A stretch of DNA of 64,000 nucleotides, from sequence record PV400810.1; one strand, 5' to 3'. The translations under genes and the position numbers were made by a program. The DNA comes from Pseudomonas phage vB_PaeM_GXNNA8. Positions 7,298 to 63,532 of this stretch are shown in pieces; the first letter of the stretch is position 1; each line of letters begins with the position of its first letter. The notes beneath the pieces are model-generated. The model had not been told where the DNA came from and made no database searches. It saw nothing but the letters and a program-made list of their open reading frames with translations.

Positions 7298-7340
7298 CCC
7301 CCTAACCCCTAGCCCCTTTAACAGGGCTAGGGGTTAGGGG
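7298..7340. terminator. bidirectional intrinsic-terminator-like hairpin (CCCCTAACCCCTAGCCCC / GGGCTAGGGGTTAGGGG) between convergent genes
   Basis: Stem of ~17 bp. T-runs on both sides (tttattcag on plus; ggtataacgtttattttt on minus). Confidence 0.7.
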
Positions 7341-7351
7341 TTTATTCAGTG

Positions 7352-7828
7352 TTACTCTTTACTCTCAATGATGTACGGCATGAAGAAGGTCGGACCCAGG
7401 CCTTCCATTGCACGGTAGAAGTTCAGCGAGCGCAGTTCTACCGAGGTTTCAGGATTACCCACCAGGATCGACAGGTTTTTCAGGTCGATCTTCTTGCGTT
7501 TGGCGAATTCCACATAACGCTGTACGGCGACATCGATGTAGTATTCTTCGGGGATAAGACCCGGACGGGTAACCTTACGGACTTCTTCCACCATCTCAAT
7601 AAGGAGTTCTTTATTGAATTCCCCATTGTCATAGAGCGACAGTACATTGATCAGAATGTTGTCGAAGTCCTGGTTATCCTCTTCACTCTCGTCTTTCGAG
7701 GCTTTGGGAGACGTTTGAGGGGTAGCGGGAGCTGGCTGAGCGGGAGGAGTCACCGGAGGGGTGGTTACCGCTTTAGCCTTCTCGTCCTCAGGAGTGGAGG
7801 GGTTCTTCTGATCGTTGTTTTTCGACAT
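7352..7828 (-). CDS. hypothetical protein with N-terminal Pro/Thr/Ala-rich low-complexity linker
   Basis: Track ORF is 7352..7909. The ATG at 7828 is preceded by AAGAGG and gives MSKNNDQKNPSTPEDEK... Confidence 0.55.
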   Translation of the reverse strand: MSKNNDQKNPSTPEDEKAKAVTTPPVTPPAQPAPATPQTSPKASKDESEEDNQDFDNILINVLSLYDNGEFNKELLIEMVEEVRKVTRPGLIPEEYYIDVAVQRYVEFAKRKKIDLKNLSILVGNPETSVELRSLNFYRAMEGLGPTFFMPYIIESKE

Positions 7829-7938
7829 CGCTTTAACCTCTTGGTAAGTCGGGGGATAAGACATAATATTCGTACAGTCTGTATCCGTTAGAAACCGGTC
7901 GAGTAACACGGCATTAAGACAAAAAATAAAAGGAGCGA

Positions 7939-7988
7939 GGGGAGGAGGAACCCACCTGCTTAGAGCCGATGGCTGTCCCTCCTCCCCT
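7939..7988 (-). terminator. GC-rich hairpin (GGGGAGGAGG ... CCTCCTCCCC, ~30-nt loop) followed by a U-tract (TTTTATTTTTT) on the minus strand
   Basis: Ends a ~290-nt non-coding minus-strand segment (7921..8278). Confidence 0.55.
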
Positions 7989-8278
7989 TAACTTGCTAGG
8001 TGTTCAACCAGCGCTAGTTTAGCACCTTCACAAGCCGCCTCACCGTCCGAGAACCTTCCCGCCGACAGCACCGAAAAGGAGACTGAAGTCCAGGTCAATA
8101 GCTCAACAGTGTGACTTGACGATAGCGGCTATACCGTCCATAGGGTTCGGAGTATGAGTTTTGCCAAGCTCATACTCGACGAGTACCACGCCTTATCACC
8201 CTTAAGTTCAGGCGGGACCCGCAGACGCGGATTAATATGACACGTTGTCCGTATATAATACCGTCAACGTGTTAAAAC

Positions 8279-11694: not shown

Positions 11695-11759
11695 TGGTTT
11701 ATTCCTCGTGGCTTAATACATCAATAATCTAGGTTTAAAATACGCTATACCGTAATAAA

Positions 11760-11793
11760 CCCTCCTACCTCCCTTCAAAGGGAGGTAGGAGGG
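11760..11793 (-). terminator. hairpin CCCTCCTACCTCCC-ttcaaa-GGGAGGTAGGAGGG
   Basis: Followed by a T-rich run in the minus orientation. Downstream of the 11815..12111 gene. Confidence 0.6.
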
Positions 11794-11814
11794 TATTTAC
11801 ACGGTGTTTACGGG

Positions 11815-12148: not shown

Positions 12149-12185
12149 CCTGTTCCCTACCCCTCTGAGAAAGGTAGGGAACAGG
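12149..12185 (-). terminator. hairpin CCTGTTCCCTACC...GGTAGGGAACAGG downstream of the tRNA
   Basis: 13-bp stem with TTTTCTTTAT after it in the minus orientation. Confidence 0.65.
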
Positions 12186-12328: not shown

Positions 12329-12404
12329 TGGTTCCGTGACCAGGGTTCGAACCCGGGACCTACTGTTTACGAAACAGTTGCTCTACCTACTGAGCTATCA
12401 CGGA
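12329..12404 (-). tRNA. tRNA-Thr (anticodon CGU), 76 nt with encoded CCA
   Basis: Reverse complement is TCCGTGATAGCTCAGTAGGTAGAGCAACTGTTTCGTAAACAGTAGGTCCCGGGTTCGAACCCTGGTCACGGAACCA. It has a 7-bp acceptor stem, a GCTC/GAGC D-stem, an ACTGT/ACAGT anticodon stem with loop TTCGTAA, a TTCGAAC T-loop, discriminator A and CCA. Confidence 0.8.
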
Positions 12405-15143: not shown

Positions 15144-15212
15144 TACAAATTCCTTGACTACTGAAATAACTACCAACAGAGGCCCTGTGAGGCCTCTGTT
15201 GAATGATTGTCT

Positions 15213-16846: not shown

Positions 16847-16970
16847 TTTGGATTACCTCAGGTGTTTGTGAAATTCTAAATGATTCTGGTCAATGTACGT
16901 ATTAGATACACTCAACAGAATAATTTAACCACCGGTAGGTTATCCCTACCGGGGTATTGATGGTGAGGGG

Positions 16971-17821: not shown

Positions 17822-17877
17822 ACGTCTTCCTCAAGAAAGTCTCCCCTAAGGAGGGGAGACTGTTTGCCGTTAATCCT

Positions 17878-18309: not shown

Positions 18310-18398
18310 GGTATTTCCCTATGTGAAAAATGAAAGAGACGTAAAGAACCCGCCTCCTCATCCCTCTTAAACAGGACAAGGAAGCGGGGGTGGGTTCT

Positions 18399-18563: not shown

Positions 18564-18638
18564 AATAAACACCTTCCTGGCTGAGTGGGTTACCAAAAAA
18601 GAAGAGGAGAAGGGATAACCTTCTCCTTGGAACAGACG

Positions 18639-18995: not shown

Positions 18996-19126
18996 GGGTG
19001 AGTCCTCGTTCGTGTGTAGGAAATGGGGAGTAAAACAGTTAACAACTAATAGGATTGTTGCTATTCACCCTGATTATTTAGATCTGAAAATAACTGTAAG
19101 TTAAATAAATAAACCAATAAGGAATA

Positions 19127-19156
19127 CCTACCCTAGTGGAGATCCACTAGGGTAGG
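19127..19156 (-). terminator. near-perfect 30-bp palindrome CCTACCCTAGTGGA-GA-TCCACTAGGGTAGG in an AT-rich spacer
   Basis: 14-bp arms. In the minus orientation it is followed by TATTCCTTATTGGTTTATTTATTT. Could also be an operator. Confidence 0.55.
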
Positions 19157-19193
19157 TTAATTGTTTTAATTCAATCGCGATTAAATCAAGTAT

Positions 19194-24355: not shown

Positions 24356-24461
24356 GTTAGTGTCAAGATCATCTGGTGCGCGGTCAGATAACCTATTGTC
24401 TTGTACCCAAGGATAATGTAGGTTTAAAATATTCCAATAAACGGTATAACTGCAAATATAA

Positions 24462-24495
24462 CCCTACCCACTCCCCGTTAAGGGAGTGGGTAGGG
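24462..24495 (-). terminator. hairpin CCCTACCCACTCCCC-gttaa-GGGAGTGGGTAGGG downstream of the putative MCP gene
   Basis: Same sequence as the 50288-50323 hairpin. A T-rich run follows in the minus orientation. Confidence 0.7.
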
Positions 24496-26798: not shown

Positions 26799-26880
26799 GG
26801 ATATAAATCCTGTTCGAGATGAGTAACAAACATGTTTGTTGCGCAATAGAACTGCACATAAAATGTGCGCAGCCTTTTAA

Positions 26881-27426: not shown

Positions 27427-27451
27427 CTACTTTACACTCTCAGGGGTTAGC

Positions 27452-43751: not shown

Positions 43752-43758
43752 CTAAGGG

Positions 43759-46242: not shown

Positions 46243-46275
46243 GATAAACCCCTGATCACTTTAAGGTAATAAACA

Positions 46276-50279: not shown

Positions 50280-50287
50280 GACGTATA

Positions 50288-50323
50288 CCCCTACCCACTC
50301 CCCGTTAAGGGAGTGGGTAGGGG
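50288..50323. terminator. bidirectional hairpin CCCCTACCCACTCCCC-gttaa-GGGAGTGGGTAGGGG (copy of the 24462 element)
   Basis: Between convergent 47349..50279 (+) and 50334..51065 (-). Confidence 0.7.
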
Positions 50324-50333
50324 TACCTTTACG

Positions 50334-51065
50334 TTACTCGGTGTCTTTAGAGGGAAGATTACCTTCAATCAACTCGTCCAAGAAACACGAGAACAACTTA
50401 GCCAACCGCACCCGAACACCGAGTTGTTGGGTGTAGTAATCGATACCGGCCAGAGATTGCTCTTTGATCGAAGAGGGTGAGAGGTAATACTGGTAGAAGT
50501 TCTCCTTGACCTGCTTCAATTCGAAGTCATAGTCATCCAGAAGGAGGTAATCCCCGTCATCCACACAGCGGGCTTGATCACGCAGTTGAGTCCAACAGGT
50601 AATCTCGCCATCTGCGACCTTCTCTTTCCCTTCGAAAAACCCGTTAGCGAAGTATTCAAAGAACCGGGCGGGTTCCTTACGGAGTTCGTTGTACTTCTCC
50701 AGGGCGACGGGGTCATTCAGGTCCGCTCGGTTAATAGACGAGAACACCTGTTCCAGTCGACCCCCGATCCTGGGGAACGCCACCGCAAAGAAGGCCTTGG
50801 TAGCTCCCAAAGCCAGGATATAACCAGCCTGCTCACCCAACGACGTGCAGAGGATAATACCTCCGTTGTCCTTAGGGAACTGAGCCGTAACACGAACTTT
50901 CATTTTTTCCGCCTGTTCACCAGACCAGTACCGGTCAATGATGGCGTAAGCGGCTTCAGGTCCTATCCCTTCTTTCAGCAGAGCGAGGTCGTCCTCACTG
51001 GTCTTACGGATCAATTCCAGTTCGTGCAGGGCTTTAATACCCAGTTCACACACTTCACGATTCAT
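50334..51065 (-). CDS. hypothetical protein (~243 aa)
   Basis: Track ORF is 50334..51080. The ATG at 51065 gives an ATGA overlap with the upstream stop. Confidence 0.5.
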   Translation of the reverse strand: MNREVCELGIKALHELELIRKTSEDDLALLKEGIGPEAAYAIIDRYWSGEQAEKMKVRVTAQFPKDNGGIILCTSLGEQAGYILALGATKAFFAVAFPRIGGRLEQVFSSINRADLNDPVALEKYNELRKEPARFFEYFANGFFEGKEKVADGEITCWTQLRDQARCVDDGDYLLLDDYDFELKQVKENFYQYYLSPSSIKEQSLAGIDYYTQQLGVRVRLAKLFSCFLDELIEGNLPSKDTE

Positions 51066-52579
51066 ACGGGTCTCCCCCATCCAGTTTGTCGTGCCAAGGC
51101 ATTGTACTTGGAACGAAGCTCACCAATGTCGTTTTCAATCACGATTTTCATCGTCCCACTCATCTTCTCCAGGAAGGTCTTTGCATCCGCTTCCGGAATA
51201 AAATCCAACGCCAATGTCGGATAACCCTCCGCATTCGCCACAGGAGAGTGCCCCGCCTCGCGAGCTTGGATATTGATTTCACGAAGCTTTTCAATGTCAT
51301 CCAGCAGACCATGGTAATACCACATGTGAGAACGGTGATACCAACCCACCAACGCTGCTACTTGGTTTTCAACCGCCAACAGCTGACTGGTTACAGATTG
51401 GCAATATTGGCTGAAGTTACGCATGGCAACCGCCACGCCCTGGTAATCACTGAGGAGTCCAGGGACTTGGTAGTATCCCGCAATGCTCTTGACCTTCTCG
51501 GCATCGGTTACATCCACCAGATTACCCAACTCACTCAGACGAATCCGAGACATGTCGATCGCCTTATCCGAGATCGTCATATACGCCGCGTTGAGCTGCT
51601 GAACGAGGTCCATGATCACCGGAGTGTTCACCCGGGTCAACTTCACCCGTTGAGCCTGAATGTTCTCTTTAAGGGTCTCCCGGACGGTATGGAACCCTTC
51701 ATTCAACGCCTCGTTTTCGAACTTCACCTTGTAGAGGGTTTCCAGGAGCTGACCGATTTGTTCTACTAAACCATCCGGTTTAACGAAGGTCAGGGTTTCC
51801 AACACCGCTTTCTGGACTCGGTTAACCTCAGGGGAGTTCGCACCGTCTACGTACTCTCGGAGGTGAGCTCGACCCCGGGTAGCGTTGTATTCGTTACGGA
51901 TGGTCCTTTTAAGGTTTTCAGACGCACGTATTGCTTTGTCGGAAGCCTCCGTTAGTTTACCGATAATTTGTTCGAAGAGTGGGAAGACTTTACGAAGGGC
52001 CTCGATGCTCTCTTCATCGGTTTCGAACTTTGTGCGGAGGATCGTCAGTTGACCAATGCGGTCAGTGGCATTAGGGAACTCCCCAATGAACTTCTCCAGG
52101 TTGTAATTCGCCCCTGGGAAGCCCAGACCGTTCAAGGTCTGACGGAACTCCTCCCGGAGGTTCTCAAAGGAGTCATTAATCGCCTGGTTAATACGCGCGC
52201 TCTTACGGAAGCCCAGGAGACCTTTAATGTGTTCCATAACCCATTTAAAGGCCATCTTGATGTACTTGATGATCCCTTCAATGAACTTTTTGAACCCTTC
52301 CGTAATGGTAGAGATAAACCCTTCCGCTCCCATTACAGCATTACGCTCCGTTGGGAAAGGATCCATTTCGTACGCATTCTTCAGTTTGAGTTGGATAGCA
52401 ATGTCCCGAGAGAAGCGATTGAGCGCGAGGCTCTCACTCCCTTGGACCATGGCGTCCACCACGGGTTGACCGGTTTCTTCGTAGTACTCGTCCAGATCAA
52501 TGAGTTGTTTATCATCACCTGGGAGCACGCCGTCAACCGGATCACTCAATTGGAAATACGAACTCACCGGATTACTCAT
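51062..52579 (-). CDS. head/internal-protein-family paralog (GAE|GFISTITEGFKKFIEGIIKYIKMAFKWV)
   Basis: Shares the N-terminal motif with 38931, 40105 and 56337. Alpha-helical, 505 aa. Confidence 0.55.
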   Translation of the reverse strand: MSNPVSSYFQLSDPVDGVLPGDDKQLIDLDEYYEETGQPVVDAMVQGSESLALNRFSRDIAIQLKLKNAYEMDPFPTERNAVMGAEGFISTITEGFKKFIEGIIKYIKMAFKWVMEHIKGLLGFRKSARINQAINDSFENLREEFRQTLNGLGFPGANYNLEKFIGEFPNATDRIGQLTILRTKFETDEESIEALRKVFPLFEQIIGKLTEASDKAIRASENLKRTIRNEYNATRGRAHLREYVDGANSPEVNRVQKAVLETLTFVKPDGLVEQIGQLLETLYKVKFENEALNEGFHTVRETLKENIQAQRVKLTRVNTPVIMDLVQQLNAAYMTISDKAIDMSRIRLSELGNLVDVTDAEKVKSIAGYYQVPGLLSDYQGVAVAMRNFSQYCQSVTSQLLAVENQVAALVGWYHRSHMWYYHGLLDDIEKLREINIQAREAGHSPVANAEGYPTLALDFIPEADAKTFLEKMSGTMKIVIENDIGELRSKYNALARQTGWGRPV

Positions 52580-53018
52580 TGCCTTTCACCAATTCATTGT
52601 AGAGGAAATGAACCAGCTCACAGAACAGATCATTGTCCGTGGCGTCGAGTTTATCCACCGTGGTATCGCCCGACTCGGGACAGGTGCGTTTCACATCCAG
52701 ATACACATCGAATTCCGCATTACCGGGCGTTTTACCTTCTTTCATCAGACAGCCGCGAATACGGGTCAGACGGAGTTTAACCGATTCCACAATGAAGGAA
52801 GCATTAATCGGATACACTGAATTCCACTTATCGAGCTGCACCCAGATGCTATTCTCTTCGTCTTCTCCCAGGGTGAAACTGTCCTGGGAACGAGCATGGC
52901 GCTTGAGAATGGCGCGGATGTAGGCTTCCTGGCAGGCTGTGTTCAACGCATACGGGCAGGTAACCCCTTGACTGGTAAGATAACCCCGGTAATCGTTTAC
53001 ATGGGCGAGGTGAGACAT
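52572..53018 (-). CDS. hypothetical protein (148 aa)
   Basis: ORF. Confidence 0.5.
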   Translation of the reverse strand: MSHLAHVNDYRGYLTSQGVTCPYALNTACQEAYIRAILKRHARSQDSFTLGEDEENSIWVQLDKWNSVYPINASFIVESVKLRLTRIRGCLMKEGKTPGNAEFDVYLDVKRTCPESGDTTVDKLDATDNDLFCELVHFLYNELVKGNE

Positions 53019-53028
53019 TATAAACTCC

Positions 53029-54390
53029 TTAGAGCGTCTTCAGTTGACTGGACAAGACTGCCAGTTCATGGTTATTAAGGGATTGAGTAAAGTGTTCGAT
53101 TTCTTGCTTACGGAAATCGCTGCCTGAGAAAATCCAACCAATAAAGCGATAGAGGACGGTGTTGTCGTACCAGGGTTTAAGTTTCTTAACCGCTTCCAGG
53201 GCTTTGGTGATGTCATCAATCAACCGCACCCGTTCCTCACCGGGAACGGTTTTACTGGCTTTCAGTTTAGCAATCAATTGGCGCAGGGCATCTTCCATAC
53301 GGCGGTGGTCGGAATTGTAGGCACCGGAATACCCGGCTTGGAAATACGCAAAGGCTGAACTGAGGGCAAAGACCCCCCACAACATACCCCCCAGCGCCGA
53401 GGTTCCCCCGGTAACAATGATGGTGACAGCGGCTGTAGGCCAAAACAAGAAGAGGGTTGCAACGGCACCGAACAGGAAGGTCTCTGTCGCAATGGTAAAG
53501 ACACCACGGTCCACCAAAGCACTGATCCCAGCGATCACTTCCTTACTGAAGCCCATACGAATGGCGTACATATCCGCAATCACTTCACTGGTCATCTCGG
53601 GAACCCCAACAGACAGTGACCGACGACTGTTCCGTTGAGAGAGCAGTTTGGTGTAGTACAGGAGGTAGTTCTCTTCATCTTCCTGGGTGGCAAAGCTTTT
53701 CAATTCCTCCAATTTGGCTTCTGGGACATCCAGAATAGCAGCGGTGTCTTTCAGGATAATCACCCGTTCTTCTGCTTTGGTGGCTTTACGGTACTGATCC
53801 AAGCCTGCTCGGGCTACCAGGTTGTCTTCCAGGTGAGTCAGCAGGAGTGCGCACCCCCCAAAGGCATGTCCCAGTTCGTGAGCGATACCGCCTGCTAGCG
53901 CACCTCCCATGGAGACTTTCCATTTGGTGATCTTATCCAACGGGAAGAACTGATGCAGGTTGACGTTGATCCCAATAGTCAAGGGAACGTCTTGGAACGA
54001 ACCGGTCACTTTACCGGAGCGGTAATCAACACCTCCTTTAAAGATCTTGTTCTTGTTCTCCACAAACCACCGATACAGGGTAGTCTTAGAGGCTGGAATC
54101 AACACATCAGTACCCGTGTTGTTCAGAACATGGTTCGGGGAGAAATACCCCGCGTCGATGTACAGGTTACCACTGTCGTTCAACTCCAGCTTTATGTTGC
54201 TAAAGCCAGTGTGTTTCTTAATGAGTCCCAGTACGTCCACTTGGCAGTCAGGGGACAACACCACCCGCTTATCGGTAATCGTAATGTATTGATCCAAGCA
54301 AGCGGTTAATTCGTCTTTAAAGGTAGCATTCTGGAACTCAATGAACTCCGTACCCGCTACCTTTCGGGTAATAAAACTCATGTCCAACAT
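53029..54390 (-). CDS. M48/HtpX-like zinc metalloprotease with C-terminal transmembrane helices
   Basis: HEXXH within GGIAHELGHAFGG, and about 95 aa downstream an E-V-I-A-D-M-Y-A (ExxADxxA) third-ligand motif. Two or three hydrophobic helices follow (FLFGAVATLFLFWPTAAVTIIV; LGGMLWGVFALSSAFAYF). Confidence 0.5.
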   Translation of the reverse strand: MLDMSFITRKVAGTEFIEFQNATFKDELTACLDQYITITDKRVVLSPDCQVDVLGLIKKHTGFSNIKLELNDSGNLYIDAGYFSPNHVLNNTGTDVLIPASKTTLYRWFVENKNKIFKGGVDYRSGKVTGSFQDVPLTIGINVNLHQFFPLDKITKWKVSMGGALAGGIAHELGHAFGGCALLLTHLEDNLVARAGLDQYRKATKAEERVIILKDTAAILDVPEAKLEELKSFATQEDEENYLLYYTKLLSQRNSRRSLSVGVPEMTSEVIADMYAIRMGFSKEVIAGISALVDRGVFTIATETFLFGAVATLFLFWPTAAVTIIVTGGTSALGGMLWGVFALSSAFAYFQAGYSGAYNSDHRRMEDALRQLIAKLKASKTVPGEERVRLIDDITKALEAVKKLKPWYDNTVLYRFIGWIFSGSDFRKQEIEHFTQSLNNHELAVLSSQLKTL

Positions 54391-54474
54391 TAACGGGTTA
54401 CTCCTACTGTAAATACCGACCTATACCCCTATTGGTATAGTCTCCAAAGCAATCATAAAATGCAGGGTTAAGGA

Positions 54475-56280
54475 ATGGTCGAGAATACTTCACCCATTGT
54501 CGCTAAAGTCTGCAAACACAGTAATTACTCGGTCAGCAGGTTCAACAGGGGCAGTGATTTAACGTGTGTTAAGATCACCAATATTCATGAAGATGGTGGT
54601 CGAAGTCAATCGTTTATTTCGATTAAGGATTATAAGCAACCGTACTACATTGTTAAAGAGAACAAACGGAAGTACAAACAGCATAAAGATTACATTGAGG
54701 AATCTTGGTGTCGGGAGTACAAGGCTCCCCGTGCACAGATTGCCTTTAATGTGATTAAACAGCTCTATGGGCGAGCGGATTATAAAGCCAGTCTAGCGGA
54801 AGCTAAAGAAAGTCCTTACGTCTTCGGCTTAGACCAAACCCCTCCAGTGCACATTAAACACCAGTTTTTTAAGAAGTATGGAGAACATCAGGAGAAGGAA
54901 CCGTATACCGTAGCGCCGTATGACGTTGAGACGGATATGTTCCATCCGGATAACCCCATTATGATGGCATCGGTTACCATGAAGCGTAAGGCGTATTTTG
55001 CAGCCGTACGGAGTTGGTTTAAAGAACCGGATGACGCCACGATCCTTAAGCACCTTAAAGACGCCGAAGACAAGTGGTTGAGTGAACACCTTAAACGGCG
55101 TCAGTGTGTGGTTCAATACGAACTCTTTGATACCCCAGGCCAAGTGGTGGTGGCGTGCATTAACAAGATGCACGAATGGCAACCGGACTGGGTTGCCAGT
55201 TGGCATGCGGAATACGACATGACCAAGAATGAGGAAGCCCTTAGGAATGAAGGGTATCGATTGGAGGATGTGTACAGCGATCCCAGTATTCCTAAGGAAT
55301 TTCGGTATTACAAGCTGGACTTAGGGAGAACCCACAAAGTCAAGGAAGACGGTTCTAAAATGCCGTTGGAACCTCAAGAGAAATGGCCTACCGTGCGAAC
55401 TATGGCCACTTGGCAATGGTTAGACGCGATGTCGTTCTTCTGTATTAAGCGTCAACCGTCTGAAGGTAAACTTCCCGATGTTTCGTTAGAAGGGGCGGCG
55501 AAGCATGTGAATGTGCCGGGTAAACTGTATACCGAAGAAGGCGCTCATATCCGACCGGGTACACCTCAGTGGCACCGTTACATGCAAAAGGAATGGCCTT
55601 ATCTGTACTGCATGTACAACATTGCAGATAATTTCGTTATTGAAGAGATCAATGAGAAGACCAATGACTTGTCATTGTCACTTCCTATGTTGTTGAAGTA
55701 TTCGGAGTATTTTAACTACGTCTCTCAACCCAAGTTGGTCAGTGATACCTTGAGTTTCTTTGCACGCCGGTATGGGTTTGTGTGGGGGAGTACCCCTCGT
55801 GAACGTGATCAATCCATTATTGATAAGCTACCTCCGTTGTCAAACTGGATTGCGTTACTCGATACCGAGAAGAATGCGGATGTCGGCGCTCAGCTCTTCC
55901 ATGGACTCGCTGATGTGTATAGTACCGGGCGTACAGATTCATCCGATATCGATGTTGAAGGTGCGTACCCTCACGCGACCTTGGCATTGAACGTCGGGAA
56001 TCGTACCACACAAATGGAAGTGTTTCGGATTCAAGGCGCTGACGGCAATAAGTTCAGACAGATTGGGGTGAACTTTGCGAGCAGTGCAGAAGCGAACGCC
56101 ATTGGATTATGCCATGATTTGTTTAGATTCCCTCAGTTAGATCAATTGAAGGATGAGTTTGAGCGGTTAATGGTGGAAACAGGCCAAGAGGAACTGCTAA
56201 AGGAAATGCAAGCGAACGCTCGTAACCGTAAATCTCGTATTAACATCGATACGGAAGAACCTGTGCGAGACACCGCATAA
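54475..56280 (+). CDS. DnaQ/family-B-polymerase-like 3'-5' exonuclease domain protein (probable N-terminal fragment of a split DNA polymerase)
   Basis: Exo I-like VAPYDVETD and Exo II-like YNIADNF. No polymerase motifs (DxxSLYPS, YGDTDS) in the ORF. AAGGA RBS. Confidence 0.35.
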   Translation: MVENTSPIVAKVCKHSNYSVSRFNRGSDLTCVKITNIHEDGGRSQSFISIKDYKQPYYIVKENKRKYKQHKDYIEESWCREYKAPRAQIAFNVIKQLYGRADYKASLAEAKESPYVFGLDQTPPVHIKHQFFKKYGEHQEKEPYTVAPYDVETDMFHPDNPIMMASVTMKRKAYFAAVRSWFKEPDDATILKHLKDAEDKWLSEHLKRRQCVVQYELFDTPGQVVVACINKMHEWQPDWVASWHAEYDMTKNEEALRNEGYRLEDVYSDPSIPKEFRYYKLDLGRTHKVKEDGSKMPLEPQEKWPTVRTMATWQWLDAMSFFCIKRQPSEGKLPDVSLEGAAKHVNVPGKLYTEEGAHIRPGTPQWHRYMQKEWPYLYCMYNIADNFVIEEINEKTNDLSLSLPMLLKYSEYFNYVSQPKLVSDTLSFFARRYGFVWGSTPRERDQSIIDKLPPLSNWIALLDTEKNADVGAQLFHGLADVYSTGRTDSSDIDVEGAYPHATLALNVGNRTTQMEVFRIQGADGNKFRQIGVNFASSAEANAIGLCHDLFRFPQLDQLKDEFERLMVETGQEELLKEMQANARNRKSRINIDTEEPVRDTA

Positions 56281-56285
56281 TAGAC

Positions 56286-56325
56286 CTTACTACCCCTCTC
56301 CCTTCACGGGGAGAGGGGTAGTAAG
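56286..56325. terminator. bidirectional hairpin CTTACTACCCCTCTCC...GGAGAGGGGTAGTAAG
   Basis: 16-bp stem between convergent genes. Confidence 0.65.
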
Positions 56326-56336
56326 GGTTACCAGGG

Positions 56337-57422
56337 TTACAGCCCGAAGACACCATTAAAGGCTTTCTGGAGCTTTACACTGTCTTCAATGATGTTAGTA
56401 ATGCATTTACCACATTTAACCAGGAAGTTCATGATCTTGCGGAGTTCATCCAACGCTGCTTGAGTCGCTTTGGTATCACCTCCACCTTTAGCCACCTCAG
56501 CCAATTGCTGTTCGACGGTCTTAATCATGTCAGCCATTTTGCTGCGAACACTCTGTACAGCCTGAGCAGCATTCTTAAAGGTATCGATCTCTTTAATAAC
56601 ACCGTTCATGACGTTGTGAACAGCCGTCAGGTCTTTGACGTCTTTCACTCGACTCAGCTGCTCGGTAGACTGATAGACATTGGTGCGGAGGAGTTTCATG
56701 GAGTCCGTTACCCGCATCAGGTTTTCATTCAGGGTTTCCCGGGCTTCTTTATCGGCGACATCAATCACACTGACCAAATATTGCTGGGTTTTGATCATCC
56801 GCTCAATGACACCTTGGAGGCGTTTCTTACCCCGAGTGTTGACCTTGGGAAGCTCTCGAGCCAGGGTCTTAACCGCGGCTTTCTTCTCTTCATGGGTAGC
56901 AGAGGTCTTCGCCTGTTTCTCCACCCATTCTTCTGCGTCTACCCCGTCGATCTTAAAGCCAGATTGGGCCTGTTCCTTAACCTGGGCCTTCATGGAGTGC
57001 AGGGCTTCCTGGGTTTCCGCTTCCGTCTTACCCCCGGTCTGAACCACCTCCAGTTTTGTCTGGAGATCATCAATCTCCTTCTTAGCATCCGAGGTCTTCT
57101 GAGAGACATCACGCTTAAAGAAGAAGTCCCAGAGGCTCTTGAACATCTTCACCACGTACTCATACGCGGCTTTAAGGCCTGCGCCGATATTGGCCATAAA
57201 GCCTTCGTTACCGGTCACCGAGTAACCGGGTCGGTTCGCGACGAGTGCGCCTACCAGGTACTGTTGGGAGGCGGTCAGACTTTCCGTACCTGCAACACCC
57301 CGATCCACTTGATCCAGGGTATCGTTAAGCGCATCATACACAATCCCGATGTGAGGGAGATCCGGGATTTCATAACCGTTACCGTCTTCTTCGGTAAGTA
57401 CAACACTGTCCATTGGAAGCAT
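56337..57422 (-). CDS. head/internal-protein-family paralog (GNE|GFMANIGAGLKAAYEYVVKMFKSLWDFFFK)
   Basis: Shares the N-terminal motif. Coiled-coil rich. Confidence 0.55.
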   Translation of the reverse strand: MLPMDSVVLTEEDGNGYEIPDLPHIGIVYDALNDTLDQVDRGVAGTESLTASQQYLVGALVANRPGYSVTGNEGFMANIGAGLKAAYEYVVKMFKSLWDFFFKRDVSQKTSDAKKEIDDLQTKLEVVQTGGKTEAETQEALHSMKAQVKEQAQSGFKIDGVDAEEWVEKQAKTSATHEEKKAAVKTLARELPKVNTRGKKRLQGVIERMIKTQQYLVSVIDVADKEARETLNENLMRVTDSMKLLRTNVYQSTEQLSRVKDVKDLTAVHNVMNGVIKEIDTFKNAAQAVQSVRSKMADMIKTVEQQLAEVAKGGGDTKATQAALDELRKIMNFLVKCGKCITNIIEDSVKLQKAFNGVFGL

Positions 57423-57448
57423 TCCTTGGATAAAGAGTCTAAGGGAAA

Positions 57449-58057
57449 TTAAACGTTTTGCAGCTTATTAAAGTACTGGGTGACGTTCTCTTTGCCCTTA
57501 CGAGGAAGATCGCGGATAGCCGTTCCCAGATCAATGATGCGGTTAAGACGATGACGAGCTTCCCAGTTACCCGCGATGAACGTCAGGAAGGTCATGTAGG
57601 TGTGATAGAGTTTAACGTTCTCCATCGGGTACTCCTTACGGAGTTTGTAGGTAAAGCGGAATGCTGTACCGTTGGCAAAGATTTCCCGGTTCTCCCGGAT
57701 AACCGCCAACAGGTAGTCAGTAACGATGACGTACTGGGGAAACGGAAGGGTCAGCGTAGAACCAATGATCTCGATAAAGGAGGTTTGTTCATCCTCCCGT
57801 TCACTATCACTGGTGAAACCTTTCTTACCGGCCAGGTAGGTCAGGTGACGGTCAATCCGTTCTTTCATGATATCCGTGACCGCAGTACCTTTACCATTGA
57901 CCATTTGGCCAATGCCAATACGGAGAGGTACGGGTTCGAATTTAGCACCCTGGGCCTTAGCCACCGTATTGGGGATGGAAGGCGTAGGTTGGGTCTTCGG
58001 ACTTTCTTCTTTCTTACCGAGGTCATCGACCTCAGGTGCTTTGTAATCGTTGGACAT
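57449..58057 (-). CDS. hypothetical protein (~202 aa)
   Basis: Track ORF is 57449..58117. I prefer the ATG at 58057 because the hairpin at 58122-58150 sits immediately upstream of 58117. Confidence 0.45.
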   Translation of the reverse strand: MSNDYKAPEVDDLGKKEESPKTQPTPSIPNTVAKAQGAKFEPVPLRIGIGQMVNGKGTAVTDIMKERIDRHLTYLAGKKGFTSDSEREDEQTSFIEIIGSTLTLPFPQYVIVTDYLLAVIRENREIFANGTAFRFTYKLRKEYPMENVKLYHTYMTFLTFIAGNWEARHRLNRIIDLGTAIRDLPRKGKENVTQYFNKLQNV

Positions 58058-58121
58058 TAGGAGGGCCCTTTTCAGTTGGACAGCGGTATAGAGACGAGGT
58101 GTCACCATGTATGTCATAAGA

Positions 58122-58150
58122 TAACCTGGGGGCTCTAAGCCCCCAGGTTA
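58122..58150 (-). terminator. hairpin TAACCTGGGGGC-tctaa-GCCCCCAGGTTA
   Basis: 12-bp stem between minus-strand genes. Confidence 0.5.
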
Positions 58151-58159
58151 CCCATTCTC

Positions 58160-58534
58160 TTAACGAAGTTTAGACAATTGATCTAGTAATGCATCCATAG
58201 AAACCGACTCCGAGGCGGTTCGTTTACCCCCACTCTTCGCCTGTTTCTCTTCCTCTTCCTTCAGATGTTCTTTCTCCATTACCAACCGTTTTTCCCGTCC
58301 CTTTTGAACGGCCTTAATCAACGTGTCTGCACAGTTAGCGGGCAATTCCAAGTAATCCTTTAAGGGCAGGTATTCATCCAGCCGAAAAGTCCCGTAATAC
58401 TCTCCTATGCTCTCATACGAGAAGGGGTGGTAATATCGGACTTCAGACGGAAAGAACTTAATCGATTGGTGAGGGGGGAGATTACGGGGTGAGACATATC
58501 CCATGTTGATGTCATGCAACGCTTGGTTGTTCAA
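58160..58534 (-). CDS. hypothetical protein (124 aa)
   Basis: ORF. Confidence 0.5.
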   Translation of the reverse strand: MNNQALHDINMGYVSPRNLPPHQSIKFFPSEVRYYHPFSYESIGEYYGTFRLDEYLPLKDYLELPANCADTLIKAVQKGREKRLVMEKEHLKEEEEKQAKSGGKRTASESVSMDALLDQLSKLR

Positions 58535-58629
58535 CAGGATAGTCTCTTCCTTGAGACCACTGAGATCTTGCTTCTGGAGGTTTAAGTAAACCGCCGAGAA
58601 CTCCGGATTGTGAATCGCTTTACCGCCAA

Positions 58630-60354
58630 TCAGGAGAGGGCTTCGTTGTTTACCTTTTGACGCTCCATCGCCAGATTCATCAACATCAGCTGGGAATGGA
58701 TAAAAAAACTCATAAAGGCATCGATCGGGGTATACCCGAGTTTACGATCTTCTTGGTGAGCATCCGACTCCGTACCGCACTTCGGACACACGAAGTTACG
58801 GACACCAATAAAGGTCCGGGTCAGATAAGGCGCCTTATTGTAGACGAACAACACCAAGTTCTTATTCATCACCTCATCGGTCAGCAGGGAGTCCATAAGG
58901 CCTTTATTGAACTCGTTAGGGTCTTCCTTGGCTCGTTTAATGACCTGGGGTTCACTGTCTTCGCCCGGAGGTGGCATAATAGCGAACTCTTCCACCCAGT
59001 GCATGTACTCCGCTCCACTCAAGCTGTTAAGCAGAAGGAGACGTTGCTCTTCCAGGTCTTGTTCCGTGTTGACCTTGTTGCTAATATCCGCCAACTGCTT
59101 ATCCACCCGCCCTACGAAATAGTCGAAGGTAGCGAAGGCATCCGACAGACTGGGAGGTCCTACTTTCAGACGAATGGACTGATCCTCGTTGTACACGTAC
59201 CGATTGTCCATCCCGTAGGTGGACTGTTCGATCATCTTGAGGATTTCATCAACGGTGTGTTGTTCACGCCCACTGAAGATATTACCAAAGAAAGCGGCTT
59301 CTTCATCGGTTTCAATCGACGGACGGCGCTGCACCAACTTAGTCGGATCGATGAGATCGAACTGATACCAGTCACAGCTGGGGTTCATGCAGCGGAGGTC
59401 CATTTGGACGCCGTCATCCGTAATCGACGCCAAGAGACCTGCACAGATCACCGGCATGTCCGTAATACGGATCACCTTGCTGAGGTCATCGAAATCCGCC
59501 AGGCCTTTGACACTGCTGCTGACCAAACGGGGCTTCAACCAATCCCAGATCTCAATATACCCCGCAATGTAAGACAACGCCATGGCGTTCCCACCGACCC
59601 GCCGTACATACCCCCGAATACGGCGGTTAATGTTGTTGATGAGATCAGCGACTTCCAGTTTCTGAGGACGTTCCCACGTAATACTCAGGAACGAATTACG
59701 CAGCAGTTGGTTATACTGGTATACACCCCCCGACGAACGAATGGTCGAGCGAATCATGCGATCTGCAATACTCAACCCTTTCTTATTCACTGACGGGGTC
59801 TTACCCACGATATCGGTCGTGGTGAGTTTATCACACCGGCGCGAGGCGTTGGTAATATTCTCTTCCCGCACCATGCGGGTACGAAGTTGGAGGTTCTCCT
59901 GAAGACTGTTCATGAACTTGAACAGATCACTAGCGGTCTTCTCCAACTCATTGGGATTCACATCCGGGTAGTTCTCTTGAACAAAGGCATCCCAGTCTTG
60001 CTTAGCCGATGCAAAGACTGTTGGGGAAACCTCCCCTACCTTATTCAATTCTTTGAACGTGTTCCATGCACTCCAGTTGGTAATCAGTTCAGCCGCTTTC
60101 TCATTCTCTTCTTTACCAACCCCCAGGAAGATACTGGTGAACCCCTTAGCTCGATCGTCTTCAACCAGTTCTTTGGTAATGGGGTTGAGCGGCTCCACCA
60201 CCTCCTTCATGGGTGTATTCTGAGGCGTGTGGGTATCCATGAAGCCAAAGTGGCTGGAAGGCTCCGTTTTGGGAATCGTTTGTTCAACGGCTTTGCTCAA
60301 CTCCGAAGGGGGAGTCAGTTCAGGGTTTTCGTTCGGGGTTACATTCTCAGACAT
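58630..60354 (-). CDS. hypothetical protein (574 aa) with ~60-aa disordered Pro/Thr/Glu-rich N-terminus and Cys clusters (C..C....CPKCG)
   Basis: Long ORF. Possible Zn-ribbon near the C-terminus. Confidence 0.55.
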   Translation of the reverse strand: MSENVTPNENPELTPPSELSKAVEQTIPKTEPSSHFGFMDTHTPQNTPMKEVVEPLNPITKELVEDDRAKGFTSIFLGVGKEENEKAAELITNWSAWNTFKELNKVGEVSPTVFASAKQDWDAFVQENYPDVNPNELEKTASDLFKFMNSLQENLQLRTRMVREENITNASRRCDKLTTTDIVGKTPSVNKKGLSIADRMIRSTIRSSGGVYQYNQLLRNSFLSITWERPQKLEVADLINNINRRIRGYVRRVGGNAMALSYIAGYIEIWDWLKPRLVSSSVKGLADFDDLSKVIRITDMPVICAGLLASITDDGVQMDLRCMNPSCDWYQFDLIDPTKLVQRRPSIETDEEAAFFGNIFSGREQHTVDEILKMIEQSTYGMDNRYVYNEDQSIRLKVGPPSLSDAFATFDYFVGRVDKQLADISNKVNTEQDLEEQRLLLLNSLSGAEYMHWVEEFAIMPPPGEDSEPQVIKRAKEDPNEFNKGLMDSLLTDEVMNKNLVLFVYNKAPYLTRTFIGVRNFVCPKCGTESDAHQEDRKLGYTPIDAFMSFFIHSQLMLMNLAMERQKVNNEALS

Positions 60355-60366
60355 ACAAACAGTCCC

Positions 60367-61236
60367 TTACTGGGGGTTAATGACAGGATCGTTGGAAATA
60401 GCGATGAATTCACCGACCTCTTCCTTCTCAGGGAAGGGGAGGTTATCACCCGGGATCTCTTCAGGGGAATCTGGGAGTTCCTGCTCCAGGGTGTGCAATT
60501 CGTTAAAGACGTCATTCAGCCGGCTCTCACCGTACAGCTGTTGGATAACCGTAATACGTTCACTGTGAAGTTGACACATGTAATCGTAGACAGACAGGCC
60601 TTCAGGTTTGTGTTCAACGGCATAGGCTTCGATCAGATCGCCCTGTTGGGTAATGATAGCCAGAACCGGTTCCCCAAACTCCTCACTGAGGGCTGCCATG
60701 ACATCAGCCAGGTTAAGGACGACTTCAAAGTAATCCTCGGGTTGTTGACCCGCTTCATGCAGGGTCGTGACGACTGAGACATCTTCCGCAAACTCCACCA
60801 CTTTGCGTTCGTAGTTCTCCAGTAAGGTACGGTCGTCCTCACTGATATCGAAGCGGTGTTCTTCAACCAGACGGTTGTACACGATCACCCCACTGTGGAG
60901 CTTAATGGTGACGGTAATCATGTCGTTGATGGCATTGAGGAGTTCTTCCCCACTGAAGAGCTGGGGGATGTCCTCATCACCCGTCAGCTTCATCTGTTCA
61001 GCCAGCTCAGCCAGACGTTGACGGTTATTAATAAGGTCACGCACCGAGAAGGCTTTGTTTTCACCCCTGACCTTATCGTACAAGGCATCTTTACTCAGGA
61101 CCTCCCCCTGGTAGCCTTTACCAAAGTCCTGTCGGAGGTAAGCGTCCTGGATGTTCTTAGCCCGTTGTTTTTGTTTACTCACTTGCTTGCGCTTATTGAG
61201 TTTCTTAACCCGACGCTGTTGCTGTTTAGTCGACAT
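60367..61236 (-). CDS. hypothetical protein with highly basic N-terminus (KKLNKRKQVSKQKQRAKN), possible nucleic-acid binding
   Basis: 289-aa ORF. Confidence 0.5.
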   Translation of the reverse strand: MSTKQQQRRVKKLNKRKQVSKQKQRAKNIQDAYLRQDFGKGYQGEVLSKDALYDKVRGENKAFSVRDLINNRQRLAELAEQMKLTGDEDIPQLFSGEELLNAINDMITVTIKLHSGVIVYNRLVEEHRFDISEDDRTLLENYERKVVEFAEDVSVVTTLHEAGQQPEDYFEVVLNLADVMAALSEEFGEPVLAIITQQGDLIEAYAVEHKPEGLSVYDYMCQLHSERITVIQQLYGESRLNDVFNELHTLEQELPDSPEEIPGDNLPFPEKEEVGEFIAISNDPVINPQ

Positions 61237-61251
61237 ATGCTATGATTCCCT

Positions 61252-62181
61252 TTGGAAACGCACTTTACGAGAGTTAACCCAATGATTATTGAGCATGAAG
61301 AATCTGTTACCCTGGAAGAGGGCGTGTACCTGGCTGACACCCTGGTAGGGGGTCTCTGGTCAGAACTCCGGAACACCATACCCGCCAATCAGGCTAAAGA
61401 ATTGGACGAATCGTTTAATTTAATTATGCTCAGTCAACCTGAGTCCTTGATGCCCAGTCAACTGACTGATCTGTTGATTAATGAAGCTTTGGATATCCCG
61501 ACTAAGAAGCATCAGGTGTATTTGATCCTAACGACCAATATAATCGATGTGCTGGAACAGCTAGGGTTCGTTTTCAATCACGATTTCCTGGGTGAAGACA
61601 ACCTCCCTGCTTTAACTCGGTTGTTGTCGTTCTTTATGGAGTTGCAGGAGTACGAAGACCTGATTGGTCTTAAACACGTCTTGGAGGCGTATGACATCCC
61701 CCCTGTGAACCGACTGTTCCTGGTGATGCAACTCTACCTGGGTGAAGACCTCGATCTGTCAGAGTACGAAACCTTTATTGAGGATGTTTCAGAAGTCACC
61801 CTTAAAGCCATTAAGGACGCTCTCTTTAACCCCGAGGAGATTGAGAACGTTCCTACCCCTATTGAACAGCGTATTCGGGCGAATGCAACCCTTATTGAAG
61901 GAACTCTGGCTTTTGAGCACGTTAAGAAGAACGGGCAACTGGGAGGGAGTGTAAAGAGCTTCCTGAGCTTCTACAGACGTAACCTGGAGGTTCTCCTGGC
62001 CCAACAAACGGAAGACAGCACCCTTCAGTATGCCAAGGAGGTCATTGGGTTCTTCCTGGTGTCTGAAATCAATAACGAATGGCTTAAGGATAAGATGACC
62101 CAATACCTCTATTCGGTCATTGAAGACCCTCTGACGTTGACCCGTATTGAAGACCTTATTCAGCGAGTGGAACTCCCATGA
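61252..62181 (+). CDS. hypothetical protein (309 aa; alternative ATG at 61282)
   Basis: TTG start in track. ATGA overlap with the next gene. Confidence 0.5.
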   Translation: METHFTRVNPMIIEHEESVTLEEGVYLADTLVGGLWSELRNTIPANQAKELDESFNLIMLSQPESLMPSQLTDLLINEALDIPTKKHQVYLILTTNIIDVLEQLGFVFNHDFLGEDNLPALTRLLSFFMELQEYEDLIGLKHVLEAYDIPPVNRLFLVMQLYLGEDLDLSEYETFIEDVSEVTLKAIKDALFNPEEIENVPTPIEQRIRANATLIEGTLAFEHVKKNGQLGGSVKSFLSFYRRNLEVLLAQQTEDSTLQYAKEVIGFFLVSEINNEWLKDKMTQYLYSVIEDPLTLTRIEDLIQRVELP

Positions 62182-63479
62182 CTAAACTCGACTACCTTAA
62201 ACTCTTTCTGAATAACCGAGCCTATAACGAAAAGGCGGCTATTCAATCGATTATTACAATTCAGTTTGAAGACGAAGACTCCTCTGGACAGTTCAAGAAA
62301 TACCCCTATGCTGTCTTTGTGGAAAATAATCGGTTCAATGTCGTAGTAGAGGGTTCTACTCATACCGTGAATGGGGAGGTGAATGAACCCCTGTTCTACA
62401 TGGATGAAATCCTGGAACTCCCGGGAGACTTCCATCCCGTGTTGCAAGGTAAAGCGGTCACGACTACCTTTGGACTCTTACTCTTCAACGTTATCCTCTT
62501 CTGGGAATGCTTTGGGAAGACCCAACCCTACCTTAACCAGGAGTTCACCAAACCGGTTATCTTGAAGATCTTGGAAACTCTCATGGTGGATAATCCACCA
62601 CCAGGGGAAGCGGTACCTGAAGGGAAAGCCAGTGTAGACCAGTGTTTGAAGTTCTCCCATAACTGCCAGTTCCTGGAAGGGTTGGGGTCTCACTTCATTA
62701 AACCGGGTGGCGTAGATGCCCTAACGGTGAGTCCTGAGGTCATTAAACTCAGGGATCGTCTCTTTAAAGAGCATAAAGACGAACTCAATGATCCGGTTGT
62801 TGCCACCTCGATTATTGATCAGTGTGTGGCGCTGGACATGAAGATCGTGATGTCTGGTCCTAGTCGTAAGTTCTTTATTGCAAAGAAGTTTATCGACAAC
62901 TCGCGTAAACGGATGTTCATTTCCTTCGGTATTGAACCCAATGCCTCAGGAGACGGCTGGGTACTACTCCCTAACTCCCTGGCAGAGGGTTGGGATCCGA
63001 ACTTCTTGGCGGACTACATTAATACGGCCGTAGAGGGCTCTTACAGCCGTTCTATGTCCACCGGTGAAGGTGGGGCTAGGGTTAAGGAAACGTTGCGTCT
63101 AATAGGCCGTACGGCCGTTAGCGAGGATATCGTGGATTGCGGTACTCCGGTGACCGAAACCGTTACGATCCTACCAACCAATAAAGGATACTGGGTAGGA
63201 TCGTGGATCCAGGATGGGAAAGTCCTGATACAGCTCACCGCTGAAAACCTGGATCGTTACGTTAATAAGCCCGTACAAGCCAGAGTCCCTCAGTTCTGTA
63301 CCCTAAAGGACGGTTACTATTGTAAGACCTGTTGTGGGGAAGGTCTAGGAGCCTTAGGGCATCGTCTCAGCTCTGAGGTGGTCTTGATTCCTACTCGCTT
63401 CATGCTAGCTCGTATGAAGGCCCATCACACTGCAGGGAGTAAAACGAACCTGCTGGATTTGGAAGTAGCGCTTAAATAA
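62178..63479 (+). CDS. hypothetical protein (433 aa), Cys-rich C-terminal segment (CTLKDGYYCKTCCGEG)
   Basis: ORF followed by the hairpin at 63499-63532. Confidence 0.55.
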   Translation: MTKLDYLKLFLNNRAYNEKAAIQSIITIQFEDEDSSGQFKKYPYAVFVENNRFNVVVEGSTHTVNGEVNEPLFYMDEILELPGDFHPVLQGKAVTTTFGLLLFNVILFWECFGKTQPYLNQEFTKPVILKILETLMVDNPPPGEAVPEGKASVDQCLKFSHNCQFLEGLGSHFIKPGGVDALTVSPEVIKLRDRLFKEHKDELNDPVVATSIIDQCVALDMKIVMSGPSRKFFIAKKFIDNSRKRMFISFGIEPNASGDGWVLLPNSLAEGWDPNFLADYINTAVEGSYSRSMSTGEGGARVKETLRLIGRTAVSEDIVDCGTPVTETVTILPTNKGYWVGSWIQDGKVLIQLTAENLDRYVNKPVQARVPQFCTLKDGYYCKTCCGEGLGALGHRLSSEVVLIPTRFMLARMKAHHTAGSKTNLLDLEVALK

Positions 63480-63498
63480 ACCGAAAATAACACCCTAA

Positions 63499-63532
63499 AC
63501 CCCTTCCTCTCCGATTAGGGAGAGGAAGGGGG
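63499..63532. terminator. bidirectional hairpin CCCCTTCCTCTCC-gatta-GGGAGAGGAAGGGG
   Basis: Between convergent 62178..63479 (+) and 63545.. (-). TATTTCGG follows. Confidence 0.6.

Follow-up and report, generated by a model that had tools for sequence, protein, structure and literature searches.

Long perfect hairpins with a shared CCCTACC/GGTAGGG core as probable transcription terminators of EL-like nucleus-forming jumbo phages

Little is understood of how nucleus-forming jumbo phages, with their own unusual RNA polymerases, end transcription, and phiKZ and 201phi2-1 are the only ones whose sequence-conserved terminators have been mapped. Here, we examine a family of GC-rich hairpins in 64,000 nucleotides (nt) of Pseudomonas phage vB_PaeM_GXNNA8 (sequence record PV400810.1). 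This whole stretch is called the window, and positions are counted from its first letter. We argue that the hairpins are probably transcription terminators of an EL-like nucleus-forming jumbo phage, and that the core segment they share is constrained in sequence beyond what pairing demands.

By megablast, the window belongs to the Elvirus group of Pseudomonas aeruginosa jumbo phages, with 97-98% identity over 10 kb to MIZ-Pa99, EL, HHBS47_1, HHBS8_1 and phiRU. It runs antiparallel to EL at ~51-115 kb, and most of its genes lie on the minus strand. The genes of EL include those for a nuclear shell protein, PhuZ and several RNA polymerase (RNAP) beta-like subunits, which mark it as a nucleus-forming phage. 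Because EL encodes several such subunits, its genes are expected to be transcribed by phage-encoded polymerases. Matches to sigma-70-like promoters are at or below shuffle expectation, with 17, 6 and 10 in three stretches of the window against ~18-19 in each (25001-45000: 6 against 18.0, s.d. 4.7; 45001-64000: 10 against 19.3, s.d. 5.5). This scarcity fits a phage that does not depend on the host RNAP.

A preliminary description of the window had listed 15 intergenic inverted repeats, and all 15 sites fold as strong hairpins. When a perfect inverted repeat is defined as a stem of at least 9 bp closed by a loop of 3-12 nt, the window contains 21 of them; ten dinucleotide shuffles give 1-4. A cut-off of -18 kcal/mol in sliding-window folding is non-discriminating, since a shuffle yields 72 peaks and the window 101. 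It takes a cut-off of -25 kcal/mol or below for the set to stand out, and 13 of the 15 listed sites are among the 15 windows of 48 nt that fold this stably. The stems are perfect and 8-18 bp long, with energies of -19 to -39 kcal/mol. An Rfam scan of the window at gathering thresholds returned tRNA only; the hairpins match no family.

Five hairpins lie between convergent genes, and no strand is assigned to them. The first, at 7299-7340, separates a gp103-like gene (+) from a gp102-like gene (-); it has a 17-bp stem, an 8-nt loop and a variant core (CCTAACC/CCTAGCC), and folds at -38 kcal/mol. The second (29005-29040; 15-bp stem CCCCTACCCCCTAGC) stands between the genes for a DnaB-like helicase (+) and a gp075-like protein (-), and has syntenic counterparts in the phages RisingSun, FishSpeaker and Aphrodite1. 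Between a gp056-like (+) and a gp055-like (-) gene, the third (50286-50325) has a 17-bp stem whose inner 34 nt are those of positions 24462-24495. The fourth, at 56285-56326, forms an 18-bp stem (CCTTACTACCCCTCTCCC, -39 kcal/mol) between the DNA polymerase gene (+) and a gp050-like gene (-). All of these are candidate bidirectional terminators. The last, between an RNAP beta-like (+) and a gp043-like (-) gene at 63500-63531, has a 13-bp stem, CCCCTTCCTCTCC, without the core. Of these five hairpins, only 7299 has TTAT on both sides; 29005, 56285 and 63500 have it on one, and 50286 has none. A core-bearing hairpin had been described at every convergent junction of the window. The hairpins are indeed there at all five, with perfect stems of 13-18 bp (7299, 29005, 50286, 56285 and 63500), but exact CCTACC is present in only two of them.

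Two further observations concern the last junction. The region has diverged, with a partial match only in MIZ-Pa99, and EL carries an unrelated hairpin there (TACTACCTCCCTTCC, EL 51511-51544). Within the RNAP beta-like gene itself (62178-63479), a CCTACC...GGTAGG pair (GATCCTACC ... GGTAGGATC) lies in coding sequence at 63170-63199 (+). It folds at about -20 kcal/mol with a large loop, and may be a chance occurrence or an internal attenuator.

All 12 unidirectional hairpins in the window lie between minus-strand genes. The one at 11759-11794 (-) is a candidate terminator 20 nt past the stop codon of a gp097-like gene, with a 16-bp stem containing CCTCCTACCTCC and the sense-strand tail TTATTACGG. 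The hairpin at 12149-12185 (-) has a 13-bp stem with a CCCTACC core, 144 nt downstream of a tRNA-Thr gene and 37 nt upstream of the gp097-like start. It falls inside ORF096, a short open reading frame of the EL annotation that may not be a real gene. The tRNA-Thr gene (anticodon CGT), found by ARAGORN and Rfam at 12329-12404 (-) and equivalent to EL 102946-103021, occupies a position that has no feature in the annotation tables of EL, MIZ-Pa99 or HHBS47_1. Past a gp086-like gene, the short hairpin at 16932-16952 (-) reads CCGGTAGG-TTATC-CCTACCGG, with the order of the core reversed (GGTAGG first). Further candidate terminators follow a gp081-like gene (19126-19157 (-); 14-bp stem ACCTACCCTAGTGG, sense tail ATTCCTTATT), the major head protein gene at a distance of 77 nt (24462-24495 (-); CCCTACCCACTCCC-loop-GGGAGTGGGTAGGG, sense tail TTATATTTGC), a gp073-like gene (30206-30232 (-); 12-bp stem CCCTACCTAAGC, sense tail GGTGTTATACC) and the internal head protein gene (40042-40073 (-); 14-bp stem CTACAGGTAGGGGG, core again reversed, sense tail CCTTTATGTC).

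The remaining gene-end hairpins are without the core. They are found at 15174-15201 (-), at the end of a gp089-like gene (11 bp; sense tail GTAGTTATTT); at 17838-17861 (-) (10 bp, AGTCTCCCCT, no TTAT tail); at 18605-18627 (-) (9 bp, with a T-run after the stem on the sense strand); at 36223-36251 (-) (~13 bp, GGAGGGAGAGGGG first on the plus strand, -31 kcal/mol, invariant in five genomes); and at 58122-58150 (-) (13 bp, TAACCTGGGGGCT, sense tail TCTTATGACA). Two imperfect gene-end hairpins that the preliminary description did not contain lie at 18349-18388 (-) and 7939-7986. The former depends on G-U pairs, and TTCTTTAC comes after it on the sense strand.

How widely is the core shared? At least 14 of the hairpins had been credited with CC(C)TACC/GGTAGG(G), which overstates the case. 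By their first-listed positions, 9 of the 15 carry CCTACC paired exactly with GGTAGG (11760, 12149, 16932, 19127, 24462, 29004, 30206, 40042 and 50288), two carry near-variants (CCTAACC and CCTAGCC at 7298, ACTACC at 56286) and four carry none (17838, 36224, 58122 and 63499). Even so, CCTACC occurs in 8 of the 17 GC-rich hairpins of the window where shuffling of the arms predicts 0.5. Over the whole window the word is found 48 times against 29 expected; the hairpin arms account for the surplus, and outside hairpins the word stays at about background level. The exact duplicate reported earlier is also real: 34 nt are identical at 24462-24495 and 50289-50322 (the second pair of coordinates had been off by one), and the flanks of the two copies are unrelated.

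For a genome-wide census, the whole EL genome was assembled with its annotation. It contains 65 perfect hairpins, 54 of them in the 7.6% of the DNA that is non-coding. Expected values were obtained by shuffling each arm 2000 times with its composition preserved. CCTACC is present in 16 of the 54 intergenic hairpins (1.4 expected), CTACC in 20 (2.6 expected) and CTAC in 26 (5.5 expected), and for each of these words 0 of 2000 shuffles reach the observed count. CCCC, present in 21 against 17.5 expected, is not enriched. An unbiased count gives CTACC and CCTAC as the 5-mers most widely shared among EL hairpins. Moreover, 55 pairs of hairpins have a word of at least 8 nt in common, compared with 7.8 expected and a maximum of 16 in 200 shuffles, and this shared-word analysis puts the real core at about CCCCTACCY. 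Across the genome, then, the core is ~10-fold more frequent in hairpins than their composition predicts, which speaks against an origin by chance.

The placement of the hairpins and the sequence that follows them are those of gene ends. In EL, intergenic hairpins mostly lie 5-30 nt past a stop codon, and 15 of the 16 convergent junctions have one. The order of the arms depends on context: among the 16 hairpins at EL convergent junctions, 11 have the C-rich arm first (C-first), 2 are G-first and 3 are neutral, whereas unidirectional contexts hold 9 C-first and 15 G-first hairpins, the G-first ones tending toward more canonical T-tracts. The window has 10 C-first and 2 G-first. The usual bias in bacterial terminators places G in the 5' arm and C in the 3' arm; the C-first order is its opposite.

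The tail is specific to one strand. Within 14 nt of the stem, TTAT is present on the sense side of 9 of the 12 unidirectional hairpins of the window and on the antisense side of none (0/12; Fisher P=0.0003). The first 10 nt past the stem contain on average 5.1 T on the sense side against 3.3 on the antisense side. In EL, TTAT accompanies 47% of unidirectional and 41% of convergent hairpin sides, compared with an intergenic background of 9.7%. Flanking T-runs had been described as frequent. About 10 of the 17 window hairpins do pass a simple scan for a hairpin plus a T-run (at least 5 T in the 8 nt after the stem), but what usually follows the stem is a short TTAT, on the sense side. The post-stop position, the occupation of all convergent junctions, the sense-specific TTAT and an architecture common with the mapped terminators of phiKZ and 201phi2-1 (see below) support the first impression that these hairpins look like terminators.

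The EL early-type promoter ATTTTAAACCTACATTATY lies 17-31 nt beyond two of the hairpins in the window (11759 and 24462). Immediately downstream of hairpin 11759, ATTTTAAACCTAGATTATT at 11723-11741 (-) has one mismatch to WTTTYAAACCTACATTATY, and the homologous EL site is annotated 'putative phage promoter'. At 24412-24430 (-), 31 nt downstream of hairpin 24462, ATTTTAAACCTACATTATC has no mismatch and is likewise annotated in EL. The EL promoter WTTTYAAACCTACATTATY belongs to a class described as early in OBP (PMC7058600). The order of major head gene, hairpin and promoter is kept in RisingSun, with an exact promoter match, and similar promoters are found in FishSpeaker and Aphrodite1. Judged from their sequence, hairpin and promoter would form a terminator-promoter module at both sites. 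A tie between the hairpin core and the CCTAC of the EL early promoter (AAACCTACATTAT) was considered and rejected: the promoter word becomes CTAT in a Vibrio phage where the terminator core persists. We treat the likeness as an unexplained coincidence.

The core reaches well beyond the EL-like phages. Ranked by the major head protein, the nearest outgroups are Erwinia phage RisingSun (57% identity), Shewanella phage FishSpeaker (46%) and a Vibrio group (~40%). Their hairpins were taken from samples of ~42 kb around the major head gene. Core-bearing gene-end hairpins are present in RisingSun (CCCTACCTTCCC, TACTCCTACCTCC, ACTCCTGCTACCC and CCCTACTGCC), FishSpeaker (CCTACCCCTTCTGG, TACTACCCTCTCCTCCC, TAACTACTCCTGCCC and ATAACCTACCCTACTCC) and Aphrodite1 (AACTACCCCTCCTGC and ATAACTCCCTACCC). 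The enrichment of CTAC is significant in RisingSun (4 of 6 hairpins, 0.8 expected) and FishSpeaker (4 of 8, 0.65 expected), and not significant in the Aphrodite1 sample. CTACC is absent from the hairpins of a 50-kb phiKZ sample (0/28).

A scan of IMG/VR for CCTACC-N-TTAACG-N-GGTAGG returned 49 loci. In particular, the hairpin (ATAAC)CCTACCTCC-TTAACG-GGAGGTAGG(GTTAT) is near-identical in pTD1, VP4B, Vibrio phage 2 TSL-2019, RisingSun and EL (two sites), and it also occurs in several metagenomic contigs of 180-240 kb. The idea that the TTAACG loop always reads UUAACG in the sense transcript agreed with 4 of 4 annotated cases, but was given up: the context of open reading frames in the IMG/VR loci is ambiguous, and one VP4B case looks opposite.

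The site past the major head gene shows how the core is conserved. When this syntenic site is aligned in three EL-like strains, RisingSun, FishSpeaker and Aphrodite1 (six sequences), the six CTACCC/GGGTAG pairs are the same in all, and at five others both partners change with pairing retained. An invariant core with covarying flanking pairs indicates that the stem is under structural selection and that the core is additionally under sequence selection. The view that the hairpins form a sequence family rather than a set of independent hairpins is upheld by the enrichment of the core, by its conservation across genera beside covarying neighbours and by one apparent conversion of a hairpin, which is described next.

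Variation among close strains was compared for 16 hairpins in five genomes that are ~97% identical. Stems have 3.7% variable columns, flanks (60 nt on each side) 5.2% and loops 46%, an excess of loops over flanks with P ~1e-25. Three stem changes are fully compensatory, all in HHBS47_1: T-A to C-G at the hairpin past the major head gene (24462; site A), and C-G to A-T and C-G to T-A at the convergent-junction hairpin 50286 (site B). Much of the loop variation is exact inversion, that is, the loop is replaced by its reverse complement and the stem is unchanged. Inverted pairs are CTTTAACA and TGTTAAAG at 7299; CCTCTGAGAAA and TTTCTCAGAGG at 12149, where the 11-nt loop is inverted in HHBS47_1; CTGTGA and TCACAG at 15174, where the window differs from all four relatives; TTATC and GATAA at 16932, inverted in HHBS47_1; AGAT and ATCT at 19126; and CTA and TAG at 58122, inverted in phiRU. 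At 24462 the loop is inverted between EL and HHBS47_1. Small inversions associated with hairpins (loop flip-flop) are known from plastid non-coding DNA, and here too the loops (3-11 nt) differ by exact reverse complementation in near-identical genomes with stems unchanged. The difference is that they occur here in the probable terminators of a lytic phage, and at ~7 of 17 hairpins among just five genomes. Such inversions imply frequent recombination or template switching between arms of 12-17 bp.

The identical copies can be traced in the same way. In the window, sites A (24462) and B (50289) have the same loop, CGTTAA. At site A, the four other strains carry GGTTAG or the inverted form of it, and at site B CGTTAA or CGCTAA. 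Most simply, this is ectopic conversion from B to A in this phage, which accounts for the two identical copies in the window. Some of the family resemblance among the hairpins is therefore concerted evolution, a process that is unable to explain conservation of the core across genera.

Sequence-conserved terminator hairpins have been known in chimalliviruses (phiKZ and 201phi2-1) since 2024. In phiKZ, 133 termination regions were mapped by ONT-cappable-seq, and six bidirectional terminator regions lie between convergent genes (PMC10914365). A common sequence, 5'-BCCYCCCCHWWDGGGRRGGBYTTATKYYGT-3', is shared by 61 phiKZ 3' ends (Putzeys et al. 2024, PMC10914365); in it, a loop joins a C-rich arm to a G-rich arm, and TTAT comes next (PMC10914365). 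The main motif of 201phi2-1 is similar and is found in 59 terminators (PMC11512511). In addition, terminators of this phage with two motifs have longer stems and, when tested in uninfected Pseudomonas with a terminator trap, are stronger than those with one motif (PMC11512511).

The hairpins described here have much in common with those of phiKZ. Both are gene-end sites in nucleus-forming jumbo phages with their own RNA polymerases. Both form sequence-conserved families with a C-rich or pyrimidine 5' arm, a G-rich 3' arm and TTAT a few nt past the stem, and both stand between convergent genes, where they are bidirectional in phiKZ and would be so in EL. On the other hand, EL stems are 12-18 bp with loops of 3-11 nt, compared with 7-9 bp and tetraloops in phiKZ; the CCCTACC/GGTAGGG core is absent from the phiKZ sample; and EL also has many G-first hairpins. 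As in 201phi2-1 (motifs A-E, PMC11512511), several motifs are common to the terminators, a likeness drawn from the description of those motifs. Many EL hairpins can be read as an inner, phiKZ-like CTCCC...GGGAG part with an outer CCTACC...GGTAGG extension. Bacterial intrinsic terminators are similar in being GC-rich hairpins past a stop codon, in many cases with a U-rich 3' flank, and in being shared by convergent genes. EL-type hairpins differ from them in a U-tract that is short, interrupted (TTAT) or absent, in stems that are unusually long and perfect, and in a specific stem word conserved across genera. Our verdict is that the hairpins are a clade-specific, sequence-constrained variant of the known chimallivirus terminator family. 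The long-stem CCCTACC/GGTAGGG form was not found described in the literature searched, which excluded the original EL genome paper (PubMed 16256135).

As a terminator, each element would be transcribed into a long (12-18 bp) perfect RNA hairpin, usually with UUAU or a short U-rich stretch within ~10 nt, and hairpin and tail together would release the polymerase. At convergent junctions, one hairpin would serve both directions. Since the C-rich arm almost always comes first there, both transcripts read C-rich arm, loop and G-rich arm. Roughly a third to half of the elements carry the CCCTACC/GGTAGGG duplex segment (minimally CTAC/GTAG). Because this core persists from genus to genus and the remainder of the stem covaries, the sequence of the segment, and not just its pairing, appears to be under selection, and the selecting agent would most likely be the phage polymerase or else a factor for termination or processing. 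Secondarily, the hairpins may also be alike because one is now and then converted ectopically by another. Both the bidirectional action at convergent junctions and the reading of the core by a phage polymerase or factor are steps that we infer. A further proposal goes beyond this and is put forward tentatively, as possible rather than probable: the CCCTACC/GGTAGGG duplex, in many cases closed by a UUAACG loop and followed by UUAU, might be a sequence-specific termination signal of the EL/RisingSun/FishSpeaker/Vibrio clade, read by the non-canonical multisubunit RNAP or a dedicated factor, co-evolved with that clade and distinct from the phiKZ signal.

Several points weigh against the hairpins being terminators with a constrained core. 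We infer termination itself, because no transcript 3' ends for EL or its close relatives were found in the literature searched. Only the ~10 of 17 window hairpins mentioned above have a T-rich tail by the simple rule, and hairpins 17838 and 36223 have neither TTAT nor a T-run. The core can lie in either arm relative to transcription, and G-first hairpins are common in the unidirectional contexts of EL (15 against 9 C-first), an arrangement not easily squared with the reading of a word in single-stranded RNA. Because loops are readily inverted from strain to strain, their identity is not essential. A comparison of G-U with A-C mismatches, as a test of RNA- against DNA-level function, gave just 2 informative cases. 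Finally, the literal phiKZ consensus has 0 matches in the window with up to 3 mismatches, compared with 5 in a 50-kb phiKZ control, and strict membership of the phiKZ motif was dropped for this reason.

The alternative that survives best sees in the hairpins elements for the processing or stability of RNA 3' ends, or targets of an RNA-binding phage factor (e.g. an anti-terminator or a nuclease), where the transcript is cut or protected and the polymerase does not stop. A core duplex whose sequence is conserved across genera is something that a purely thermodynamic terminator does not need, several hairpins are without a U-rich tail, and the genes of EL include those for a ribonuclease, an RNA ligase and a DHH phosphoesterase. 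Moreover, the mapping of 3' ends in phiKZ cannot, alone, tell termination from processing, and anti-termination is raised for long-stem terminators by the authors of the 201phi2-1 work (PMC11512511). Yet the sense-specific TTAT agrees with the mapped terminator motif of phiKZ, and the long-stem motif terminators of 201phi2-1 work in uninfected Pseudomonas, where there are no phage factors. The core also occurs in both polarities relative to the loop, and no candidate factor was identified. We consider this explanation unlikely, and keep a role in RNA processing, stability or factor binding as a live alternative or additional function.

Far less probable is the suggestion, made in the preliminary description, of a repetitive extragenic palindromic (REP)-like family, that is, mobile palindromic repeats that spread between genes and whose terminator-like placement is a by-product of tolerated insertions. 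Bacterial REPs carry a conserved GTAG/CTAC tetranucleotide that resembles the hairpin core, and they too are short palindromes past genes in many copies. Spreading copies could also explain the 34-nt identity between unrelated flanks, the loop apparently converted from another copy and the surplus of 8-13-nt words common to hairpins. The suggestion does not hold up against the arrangement of the copies, which share just the ~8-nt core at variable stem positions and have no conserved flanks. CTAC/GTAG is paired inside perfect stems, on both arms, and is not an unpaired 5' tetranucleotide at the foot of a palindrome. There are no tandem or clustered copies, only one per junction, and syntenic junctions are occupied in phages of different genera, which points to vertical retention and not to insertion. 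The sense-specific TTAT tail would be left unexplained. In addition, the only annotated transposase of EL, gp037, is not of the Y1/RAYT kind, although the full proteome was not profile-searched. This gene (EL 41045-42187, outside the window) encodes a TnpB-type protein with OrfB_IS605, a Cas12f-like TNB domain and a helix-turn-helix.

A function at the DNA level is likewise very improbable. The hairpins would then be cruciforms or sites where a protein recognizes CCTACC, and might serve, for example, as a roadblock (polar or bipolar) to transcription or replication or as a hot spot of recombination. The core is indeed a duplex word found in both polarities, as expected of a site in double-stranded DNA. 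That the arms do interact as DNA is evident from the high frequency of loop inversion and arm conversion, and EL encodes an SbcD-like subunit of a palindrome nuclease. However, the two copies of the core lie anywhere from 5 to 20 nt apart, a range that speaks against a dimeric protein of fixed geometry; outside hairpins, CCTACC is no more frequent than background; pairing is preserved by compensatory changes; stable loops of RNA type recur (UUCG- and GNRA-like, or U-NNNN-G); and the tail motif is strand-specific.

Least credible of all, to the point of near-exclusion, is that these are ordinary terminators that evolved independently and have the core in common through base composition or chance: C- and G-rich arms alone do make short common words likely, and CCCC is no commoner than in arm shuffles, but CCTACC (16 against 1.4) and CTAC (26 against 5.5) in EL exceed every one of 2000 shuffles, the window and two other genera are enriched likewise, and at the syntenic site the core is invariant where neighbouring pairs covary.

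Read as probable terminators with a constrained core, the hairpins reveal a second, deep clade of nucleus-forming phages with a different and longer terminator hairpin: the EL-like Pseudomonas phages, Erwinia phage RisingSun, Shewanella phage FishSpeaker and the Vibrio pTD1/VP4B group. The invariant CTACC/GGTAG beside covarying pairs separates constraint on sequence from constraint on structure without an experiment, and points to precise mutants. The hairpins are also candidate strong, possibly bidirectional terminators for synthetic biology in Pseudomonas. Loop flips and hairpin-to-hairpin conversion mark these short palindromes as hot spots of recombination or template switching in phage genomes. 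If the core does prove to be a sequence-specific signal of its clade, nucleus-forming phages would have clade-specific terminator 'dialects', and these would give a handle on how phage RNAPs without sigma and alpha subunits terminate transcription.

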